From Octopus sinensis (Eukaryota), in NCBI RefSeq assembly GCF_006345805.1, contig NC_043007.1, positions 62,434,001 through 62,498,000 on the forward strand: DNA of 64,000 nucleotides, read 5' to 3'. A program made the translations under genes and the position numbers. Shown in pieces: positions 23,435 through 26,903 of the stretch. A model generated the notes under the pieces. It did no database searches and was not told where the DNA came from. It saw nothing but the letters and a program-made list of their open reading frames with translations. How positions within the stretch are numbered: the stretch's first letter is position 1; each line of letters begins with the position of its first letter.

Positions 23435-23508
23435 CTGGAAATTTACAAATATATATATATATATATATACATACATGTACAGGTACATATGTATATATTG
23501 GCATATAT

Positions 23509-23544
<36 letters not shown>

Positions 23545-23724
23545 CAATATGTATATATATATATATATATTATATACATTATGTATAATATATGTATATA
23601 ATATATATATATATATATTATACATATATGTATACATATATGTATATATAGATATATAATATATATATATATTAGTATATATCTATATGTATATATATAT
23701 TATATATATATATATACATATATG

Positions 23725-23763
<39 letters not shown>

Positions 23764-24159
23764 TGATCTTATAATATATATATATTATATATATATATAG
23801 ATATATATATAGTATATATATATATATATTATATATACATTATATAATATATATACATATTATAATATATATTATGTGTATATATATATATACATATATG
23901 TGTATATATATATATACATATATACATAGATATAACATATATGTGTATATATATATATACATATATTATATATGATATACATATATATAATTTATATTTA
24001 TACATATATATATATATATACATATATATAGATATATATATAGATTATGATATATATATATATATATATATATTATACATATATGTTATACATATATATA
24101 TATATTATACATATATATATATATATTATACATATATATAATATACATATATGTATACA

Positions 24160-24197
<38 letters not shown>

Positions 24198-24307
24198 CAT
24201 ATATGTAACATATAGATATTAATATATACCTATATGTATAACATATATATAATATATACTATATATATATATATATACATATATGTATACATATATATAT
24301 ATATATA

Positions 24308-24350
<43 letters not shown>

Positions 24351-24355
24351 TGTAT

Positions 24356-24394
<39 letters not shown>

Positions 24395-24434
24395 ATATTA
24401 TATATATATATATATAGATATTATATACATATAT

Positions 24435-24498
<64 letters not shown>

Positions 24499-24505
24499 TA
24501 ATATA

Positions 24506-24567
<62 letters not shown>

Positions 24568-24603
24568 TATACAATATATATATATATATATTATATATAT
24601 ACA

Positions 24604-24678
<75 letters not shown>

Positions 24679-24707
24679 GCGAGAAAGAAGCAACAGAATG
24701 GATAGGT

Positions 24708-24798
24708 TTTTAGTACGATCGTTTCATACAAGGACAGGTTTTATTAAAAGTTGCAAAGATTACAGCATATAAACGAGTCCCGTACTCATCAGCTAAAA
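24708..24798 (-). ncRNA. Type I hammerhead ribozyme, mirror copy
   Basis: Reverse complement of 25023-25113. Confidence 0.82.
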
Positions 24799-25022
24799 TA
24801 CATGTGAGTTCTCTAGACATCCTAGTGTTTGAGGCTATACTCATGAAGTAATGTAGATAATTAATTAACATAAACAGATTTCTAAAGTTCATTAAAGTAA
24901 GACTGTACATCATCTTTAAAGAACTTTAATGAACTTTAGAAATCTGTTTATGTTAATTAATTATCTACATTACTTCATGAGTATAGCCTCAAACACTAGG
25001 ATGTCTAGAGAACTCACATGTA

Positions 25023-25113
25023 TTTTAGCTGATGAGTACGGGACTCGTTTATATGCTGTAATCTTTGCAACTTTTAATAAAACCTGTCCTTGTATGAAAC
25101 GATCGTACTAAAA
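25023..25113 (+). ncRNA. Type I hammerhead ribozyme, apparently intact
   Basis: Stem I TTTTAG/CTAAAA; core CTGATGA (25029-25035); stem II GTACGGGAC/GTCCTTGTAT; GAAA (25096-25099); stem III AC-GATC-GT; cleavage triplet GTA (25105-25107). Confidence 0.85.
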
Positions 25114-25833
25114 ACCTATCCATTCTTGTTGCTTCTTTCTCGCTTGCTTATAATCACCCCACATTACTGTATTGTTAAATCAGTATAGTTTTTTTTTTGG
25201 TGCATCTAAGTTAGGTACCATATTCAAGTAAATTCATTTAAATTAACTTGAATCTTTATTGCTCTTTGTATATATATATATATACTATAGACATATATGT
25301 ATATATATTATATATAGATATATATATATATATGTATATATATACATATATGTATATATATATATATTACTATATGTATATATATGTATATATATACATA
25401 TATGTATATATATATATATACATATATGTGTATATATATATATATACATATATGATATATTATATATACATATTCTATACATATGGATATATATATATAT
25501 ACATATATGGATATATAAATATATATATACATATATGTATAGGATATACATATCATTATATATATATATACATATATATATATATAGATATATACATATA
25601 TATATGTATATATATATATACATGATATGTATATATATATATGGATACATATAGGTATATATATATATATATACATATATGTATATATATAATAGACATA
25701 TAGGTATATAGTATATAGAGATATCCCATATGTGTATATATATATATATATATAGAATATAGGTATATATATATATATTACTATATATATATATACATAT
25801 ATGTATATATATAGTATATATATATAATACACA

Positions 25834-25873
<40 letters not shown>

Positions 25874-26202
25874 TGTATATATTATATATACTATATGTAT
25901 ATATATATATATACATAGAATATGTGTAATATATATAGCAATATGTATATATATATAGATATATATATATTACATTAGTATATATATATATATACATATA
26001 TGTATATATATATAATAGTATATACATATATGGATATATATATATATATACATATATGTATATATATATATACATATATGTATTATAATATATATATTAC
26101 ATATATGTATATATATTATATATATATATATATATATACATTTATATATATATATATATTATATATATAATATATGTATATAATATATATAACATATATG
26201 GT

Positions 26203-26246
<44 letters not shown>

Positions 26247-26335
26247 TGTATGTATATATACATATATGTATGTATATATATATATATATATGTATAATAT
26301 ATATATATATATATGTATGTATGTATACATGTATG

Positions 26336-26388
<53 letters not shown>

Positions 26389-26903
26389 ATACAAACAGAA
26401 GTCTCTTTTTCTCATGACTCATGTTATACCACTGTAGTTTGAAGATTTGAATGGCATGAACCTCAAGCCATGGAAAAAAAAGAATTTAGTTTAAATAGAC
26501 AATATACTCTACACCTTACATTGAGTACTTTCCTCTTTTGTTGACAAACTTTAACATTTGAATGTATATAACCATTTATACATATATACACATAACATAA
26601 TTGTTAATGTACATCATATTTATTTAAAAGTTGACCATAACAGGCCAATACACAGGACCTTGAGTTTCATTCATACATTGATATTGTTTTGAAAGCTGAG
26701 AACATACTGCTAATTTTATATTCTACACAGACTATATACCAAAATTTCACATGTACAAAATAAAATAATAAATAAACAAACTGGCTTTTTATTCGTGTTT
26801 CATAAAATGACTTTTTTGCCTTTTTTTTATCACTTATTTCAAAGTTATCTATTTATCATATTTGATTAATAATTAAACATCTCTTGTGTAAGTTTATGTA
26901 TAA

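Follow-up and report, generated by a model that had tools for sequence, protein, structure and literature searches.

How does an octopus chromosome come to hold two complete hammerhead ribozymes facing one another in a near-perfect palindrome within a (TA)n array, and what sort of element left them there? The locus lies in 64,000 nucleotides of Octopus sinensis DNA, analysed whole and called the window here. The palindrome almost certainly belongs to a young Penelope-like retrotransposon of Hydra type that encodes protein, and represents its truncated 3' end within (TA)n, and the explanation that serves best overall, itself very probable, is that of a truncated Hydra-type insertion whose arms likely stem from priming at two sites, A or B.

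The mirrored stretches (220 and 221 nt, inverted on either side of a 24-nt spacer; Table 1) form an alignment of 221 columns free of substitutions, with the single indel and the spacer length that had been noted in the original prediction. The mirror arms of that picture stand; its symmetry overlooked the spacer and 25144-25269 as element sequence, and because both belong to the element the insertion is an asymmetric unit. The spacer is restricted to arm B because this arm extends further 5', and the two arms meet with a 1-nt overlap. One additional C (G in the element sense) lies beside arm A and is missing from tail-bearing copies, and the tail, 126 nt at the window locus, is about 119 nt in other copies. 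The whole insertion is predicted to fold as a single hairpin of -408 kcal/mol. Elsewhere in the window (30231-29728, minus strand) there is an open stretch of 168 aa, which we take to resemble a C-terminal fragment of a LINE RT.

Table 1. Coordinates of the insertion, its ribozymes and the element (window positions unless a locus or unit U is named)
Feature	Coordinates	Strand	Remarks
(TA)n array, degenerate	23449..26391	.	target containing the insertion
Additional C	24678		beside arm A
Arm A	24679..24898	-	inverted 5'-truncated copy of element 3' end; halts at fixed site A, abuts (TA)n
Arm B	24899..25269	+	forward 5'-truncated copy, pLTR / end of 3' UTR, U4229-4582; fixed site B, then (TA)n
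Spacer	24899..24922	+	element sequence unique to arm B
Mirrored part of arm B	24923..25143	+	221 nt
Tail	25144..25269	+	element stretch between end sites A and B
Site A	25143		
Site B	25269		
Type I hammerhead	25023..25113	+	three helices, complete core; descriptor scan and relatives' alignment
Stem I	25023-25028/25108-25113	+	6 bp
Core CUGAUGA	25029-25035	+	
Stem II region	25036-25095	+	60 nt, inner hairpin, G-U closing pair
Core GAA	25096-25098	+	
Stem III	25099-25106	+	self-complementary ACGAUCGU
Predicted cut	after 25107	+	GUA cleavage site
Type I hammerhead motif in arm A	24708..24798	-	exact mirror of + copy; predicted cut after 24714
Unit U	L108:2538-7119		natural unit, 4582 nt
Unit U landmarks	ATG U55; stop at about U2896; hammerhead core U4350		1.7-kb 3' UTR
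Open frame	L099:1279-4119		947 aa, RT and C-terminal GIY-YIG
A-to-G contigs	L109:6497-6650 region		runs X1 and X2

A descriptor scan recovers, in each arm, the full type I hammerhead that had been proposed, with its G-U-closed stem II, self-complementary stem III and GUA site, and predicts the same cut after 25107; two hammerheads are found in the 64-kb window and none in each of 30 shuffles of it. The Rfam check suggested at the outset succeeded in part, in that Hammerhead_1 (RF00163) matches 25023-25113 when 141 nt are scanned (E 0.0023), at 22 bits and so below the gathering score of 34, and when 2 kb are scanned the hammerhead is unlisted and just miRNA-like hairpin noise appears; the window motif has 91 nt against the 45 positions of the model. 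Relatives were sought downstream of diverged endonuclease copies, about 76-90% identical in aa, and in 17 of the 20 stretches examined the descriptor finds 18 homologous hammerheads. Aligned with the window copy (19 rows, 15 of them distinct) they keep the core of CUGANGA, GAAA and NUH invariant, 95.2% of 375 stem cells pair as against 32-52% in slid controls, and both partners are exchanged in three pairs, two of stem I and one of stem III, which is the covariation that had been looked for. Such covariation supports the hammerhead structure and is not proof of it, because the structure was drawn from the same sequences and the rows are related. Across the diverged relatives and the family itself stem III is self-complementary in three forms, ACAAUUGU, ACGAUUGU and ACGAUCGU, and this lasting self-complementarity is in line with the dimer model for such hammerheads given, together with low in vitro activity, in the sections of PMC4209133 that are drawn on here.

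Within the young family the core is intact in 83 of 88 arms, and conservation is just slightly higher there (0.9% differences) than in the flanks (1.4%), a margin that is not taken to indicate selection. Stems I and II are predicted to form in only about 25% of the monomer ensemble. Both ribozymes of the window are predicted to be silent, since transcription from either direction reaches the antisense arm ahead of the sense arm, and in this model the masking of a sense ribozyme by its antisense arm would be as first supposed. The hammerhead may be a passenger of the pLTR, and in full tandem units the palindromic stem III could let two sense hammerheads, 4.6 kb from each other, pair up for cleavage. 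A different type I hammerhead-like motif, with a CUGAAGA core, a long stem II and a longer stem III, was seen in each of two 99%-identical repeats 492 nt apart (L185:2531-3362, minus strand) adjoining a diverged copy of the element; these are possibly another hammerhead family, either a retrozyme or a pLTR tandem.

The 2.72-Gb genome searched with 24900-25269 gives 1061 first-look candidates, 40 of which were scored and are 95-99% identical to the query, and the window arm differs from 44 other arms by 0-2.9% substitutions; on these sequence distances the family is young, as anticipated. Exact hammerhead 22-mers occur 745 times (controls 0), a query from the 5' RT stretch finds 137 candidates, and the family comprises about a thousand copies. 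All 30 loci fetched end at, or at most 3 nt from, the window's site B and pass into (TA)n; 17 of the 30 have an inverted arm within 1.5 kb. Several loci of the family show a single arm only over that distance. Most copies are short and non-coding and carry the type I hammerhead, their 5' ends being staggered across the whole 4.58-kb unit and running unbroken into shared upstream sequence and the RT/endonuclease frame. The longer copies are 4.58-kb units with that frame, many homopolymer frameshifts are found among the copies, and where units stand in tandem the 3' end passes directly into a 54-nt leader (5' UTR) and the start codon. An intron in the 5' UTR, spanning the unit junction, was suspected; contigs of 4 runs compared with one permuted unit show no splice joint for it. 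The view of a non-coding family therefore does not survive: because the same sequence ends a coding 4.58-kb unit, the window copy is a truncated element of the autonomous Hydra-clade type and not a retrozyme.

The search for a linked RT/GIY-YIG frame, as had been advised, leads to the 947-aa frame of locus L099, which begins at an inversion junction; among 14 copies read, those with the native start are frameshifted. It has RWK (RIRWK), DKT (PADKT) and YRDD motifs, a CxCx5C linker (CKCRIKSKC), and a GIY-YIG-like VIY..YIG with neither a CCHH motif nor a cysteine pair between VIY and YIG, and its endonuclease reads CQLC..E..LLN..CVH (CxxC / CxH around E and N). Of 32 homologues returned by a protein search, 31 are 32-39% identical and either unnamed or domain-tagged, and the remaining one is a partial 68% match labelled Octopus sinensis; aligned with 8 of the 32 the motifs are conserved, and two Asn-rich inserts, roughly 70 and 150 aa long, lie in frame in the stretch from RT to endonuclease and are absent from all 8. 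No meaningful RT or GIY-YIG match came from Pfam when three frame pieces, two homologues and the 947-aa frame were scanned, and a PDB sequence search with the element protein gave 0 matches, so the domain assignment rests on motifs and homologue alignment. A stretch of P0013, a 674-aa protein named 'ankyrin repeat protein', is 68% identical to the RT region of the element, and P0013 may be a gene-model chimera or an exonised element.

Judged by its motifs and homologue alignment the element belongs, with little room for doubt, to the Hydra clade of Penelope-like elements defined by Craig et al. (2021, PMC8557442), which bears out the Penelope-like link first drawn from the ribozymes. The sections of that paper used here describe the same single RT with a C-terminal GIY-YIG, RWK, DKT and CxCx5C motifs, no CCHH, and CxxC/CxH around E and N, along with a canonical 3' hammerhead, insertion into (TA)n, partial (pLTR) tandems and an inverted 5'-truncated copy, all of which are found in the octopus family; in its supplement Penelope-13_HM has an inverted 5' copy and hammerheads on both strands. 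By the same sections, the unit of 4582 nt departs from the 'generally <3 kb' of the clade (1.4-3.0 kb in the table), a descriptive length and not a diagnostic one, and the excess is due to the Asn-rich inserts (947 aa as against about 710 aa in homologues) and the long 3' UTR of 1.7 kb, itself unlike the clade. The 60-nt stem II region with its inner hairpin differs from loops of 3-9 nt, and the tail of about 119 nt from one of 30-40. Hydra-1_Obim of Octopus bimaculoides shares the clade, an octopus host, the (TA)n target and a hammerhead; its supplement entry gives 2507 bp, about 709 aa, another N-terminal sequence and hammerhead, few copies and no reported pLTR, and comparison by eye of length, protein start and hammerhead rejects it as the same family. 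The window element is a new Hydra-type family, as far as the part of the supplement compared extends, and closer relatives may exist.

The (TA)n targeting proposed earlier is seen as 989 exact matches in the genome to the site A/(TA)n junction and 340 to the site B/(TA)n junction, controls giving 0 for both, and the two patterns differ in length and variability, so the counts do not make a ratio. Contigs from all four public runs carry loose ends at both A and B followed by (TA)n, an independent run contains an opposite-strand joint of the element, diverged subfamilies end at places matching A and B, and a short TA-like word follows both sites within the element. An extra G (element sense) is present at 56 of 76 terminal site A junctions. 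Since it occurs across all haplotypes and in none of 94 tail-bearing copies it was likely added at initiation, and looks like a non-templated or slipped first nucleotide.

How the two ends are distributed between arms was asked with a collection of 75 head-to-head junction rows from loci L001-L142, a sample biased toward close and short copies, in which two different loci sharing coordinates were merged into one row and in 23 rows an outer end was broken or coincided with the edge of the locus. All 52 insertions with both outer ends resolved pair one A with one B, whether the locus was fetched via its A end or its B end, and the mirror pair is the family's normal insertion form. With one compound junction dropped, truncation could be compared in 51: arm A reaches more than 30 nt further 5' in 13 (by up to 4.3 kb) and arm B in 14, and one arm is longer than a unit in 5. 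The truncation points coincide within 3, 10 and 30 nt in 13, 18 and 24 of the 51, where permutation means are 0.7, 1.8 and 4.0 (0 of 20000 permutations). Within an insertion, 20 of 508 diagnostic cells differ from arm to arm, or 9 of 459 once two homopolymer-edge columns are left out, as against 31% between insertions, and at a site split 50:50 both arms are alike in 33 of 34 insertions (17.1 expected). Loci L128 and L140, on different contigs, are truncated at U4359 in each of their arms, where the hammerhead contains a short imperfect palindrome; this may be a junction hot spot or a duplicated locus.

These constant A and B ends likely show how such elements prime their copying, and the reading preferred here, with moderate confidence, is that each head-to-head arm is a separate cDNA, started by one cut end of the (TA)n target at a fixed internal site of its own. 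The element protein would cut both strands in (TA)n, one 3'-OH priming at A, roughly 36 nt 3' of the hammerhead cut, and the other at B, roughly 155 nt 3' of it; both cDNAs would copy RNA of one source, often stopping at the same point, and would then be joined end to end through short overlaps or filler. Poseidon of Anolis carolinensis (Frangieh et al. 2024), in the portions of PMC11167929 relied on here, offers a precedent by analogy, since its protein cuts and extends both strands at an AT-rich target and its RT starts at two internal sites, between which lies a tail that closely follows the hammerhead; the hammerhead is protein-assisted and not needed in vitro. It differs in belonging to another clade, in a tail of 30-40 nt and in a hammerhead overlapping the ORF start. 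The octopus data fit this anole chemistry plus the rule that one target end takes A and the other B, a strict one-of-each use per insertion that those portions do not report; in vitro the start sites of the anole protein do not differ between strands, a result that does not by itself predict strict A+B pairing.

Could the palindrome come from the assembly or the sequencing instead, as a fold-back artefact? Near-identical arms and the homopolymer frameshifts of many copies might suggest so; an artefact, though, would not halt at one fixed site in 989 places, put the tail on a single arm or match an A end with a B end in 52 of 52, nor would an opposite-strand joint of the element be expected in an independent run and both ends in all four, and it is the least credible of the explanations. 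Hardly more credible is a non-coding retrozyme-like family mobilised in trans, to which the prevalence of short, non-coding, hammerhead-bearing copies lends some colour. Against it stand the staggered 5' ends continuous into the RT/endonuclease frame, and neither a fixed short unit nor a short tandem array is found among the loci read. Non-LTR retrozymes proper (bioRxiv 10.64898/2026.07.22.740005), which in the parts of that preprint considered are short non-coding head-to-tail tandems with a type I hammerhead related to PLE pLTRs, share the ribozyme type with the octopus family and are rejected as its class, the element being coding, 4.58 kb long and staggered at its 5' ends, and its short copies head-to-head truncations.

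The closer contest concerns templates. If a single B-primed cDNA of the same element folded back and copied itself until site A, identical arms and the excess of coinciding truncation points (the 24 of 51 within 30 nt) would follow, as would the overlap of at least 2 nt at 24 of 52 junctions, several at short palindromes; the window copy, with arm B 24 nt longer, fits as well. Fold-back cannot yield the 13 insertions in which arm A reaches further 5', nor full-length elements ending at A (L102, L103, L111, L112), and it is unlikely as the general route, though it may account for part of the symmetric class. Two RNA molecules in a dimeric particle, held perhaps by the palindromic stem III, with like arms reflecting a single expressed source locus, seem slightly less improbable: stem III is self-complementary throughout its three forms, in L107 and L111 each arm is close to a unit in length or longer, and the anole protein is a predicted dimer in the portions of PMC11167929 cited above. 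From independent templates one would not predict that in 18 of 51 the stops lie no more than 10 nt apart. A single RNA copied by two RTs accounts both for the longer A arms and for the coinciding stops, and with it the two-cDNA reading is kept here, bearing in mind that parts of the pattern could be mimicked: arm concordance by gene conversion from one arm to the other, by polishing of the assembly or by the activity of a single source locus in each cell, and coinciding truncation points by hairpin trimming. Because either arm can exceed one unit the template may be a circle; a hammerhead-cut circle of the kind proposed in the cited sections of PMC4209133 would explain such arms, and a multimeric transcript would too.

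Inverted 5'-truncated copies, hammerheads, (TA)n targeting, a one-sided tail and a mirror hammerhead pair are already published for the class. The mostly open-access literature searched describes neither the hammerhead of this family nor strict A+B pairing, and PMC13282606, where recently active Penelope families are counted in an octopus, leaves ribozymes unmentioned in the part used.

Octopuses belong to an animal group known for heavy RNA editing, and there is a hint that transcripts of the family are edited. None of the runs containing the element is recorded as RNA and 15 of 20 are guessed to be; in two contigs, from the guessed RNA runs X1 and X2, 3'-UTR stretches differ from genomic copies solely by A-to-G when compared by eye. 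One contig, at depth 8, shows 8 such differences over 29 nt, the other, at depth 2.5, shows 7 over 35 nt, one of them a genomic variant, and a third contig has mixed changes, not A-to-G alone. These clusters, from two contigs without matched DNA, would suit hyper-editing of hairpin transcripts. In its boldest form, which is put forward tentatively, the proposal is that every complete insertion arises by obligate twin priming from two target ends, two fixed sites and one RNA molecule, possibly a hammerhead-cut ligated circle, and that every insertion becomes the origin of an almost perfect RNA hairpin, with hundreds of them per genome, which the host hyper-edits from A to I.

The insertion itself is an expected product of a known class, and its value is as a test bed for the priming model. 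How Penelope-like elements form their inverted copies and tails is given as open in sections 6 and 15 of PMC8557442, and by the portions of PMC11167929 cited just one element, of another clade, has been reconstituted so far. With a young family of about a thousand copies, an open frame, two exact ends and a long tail, the model is directly testable here. The family is a potential source of long hairpin RNA in a heavily RNA-editing animal group, and twin priming, if true, would give a common explanation for the pLTR of Penelope-like elements, their inverted copy and the tail found on one side.
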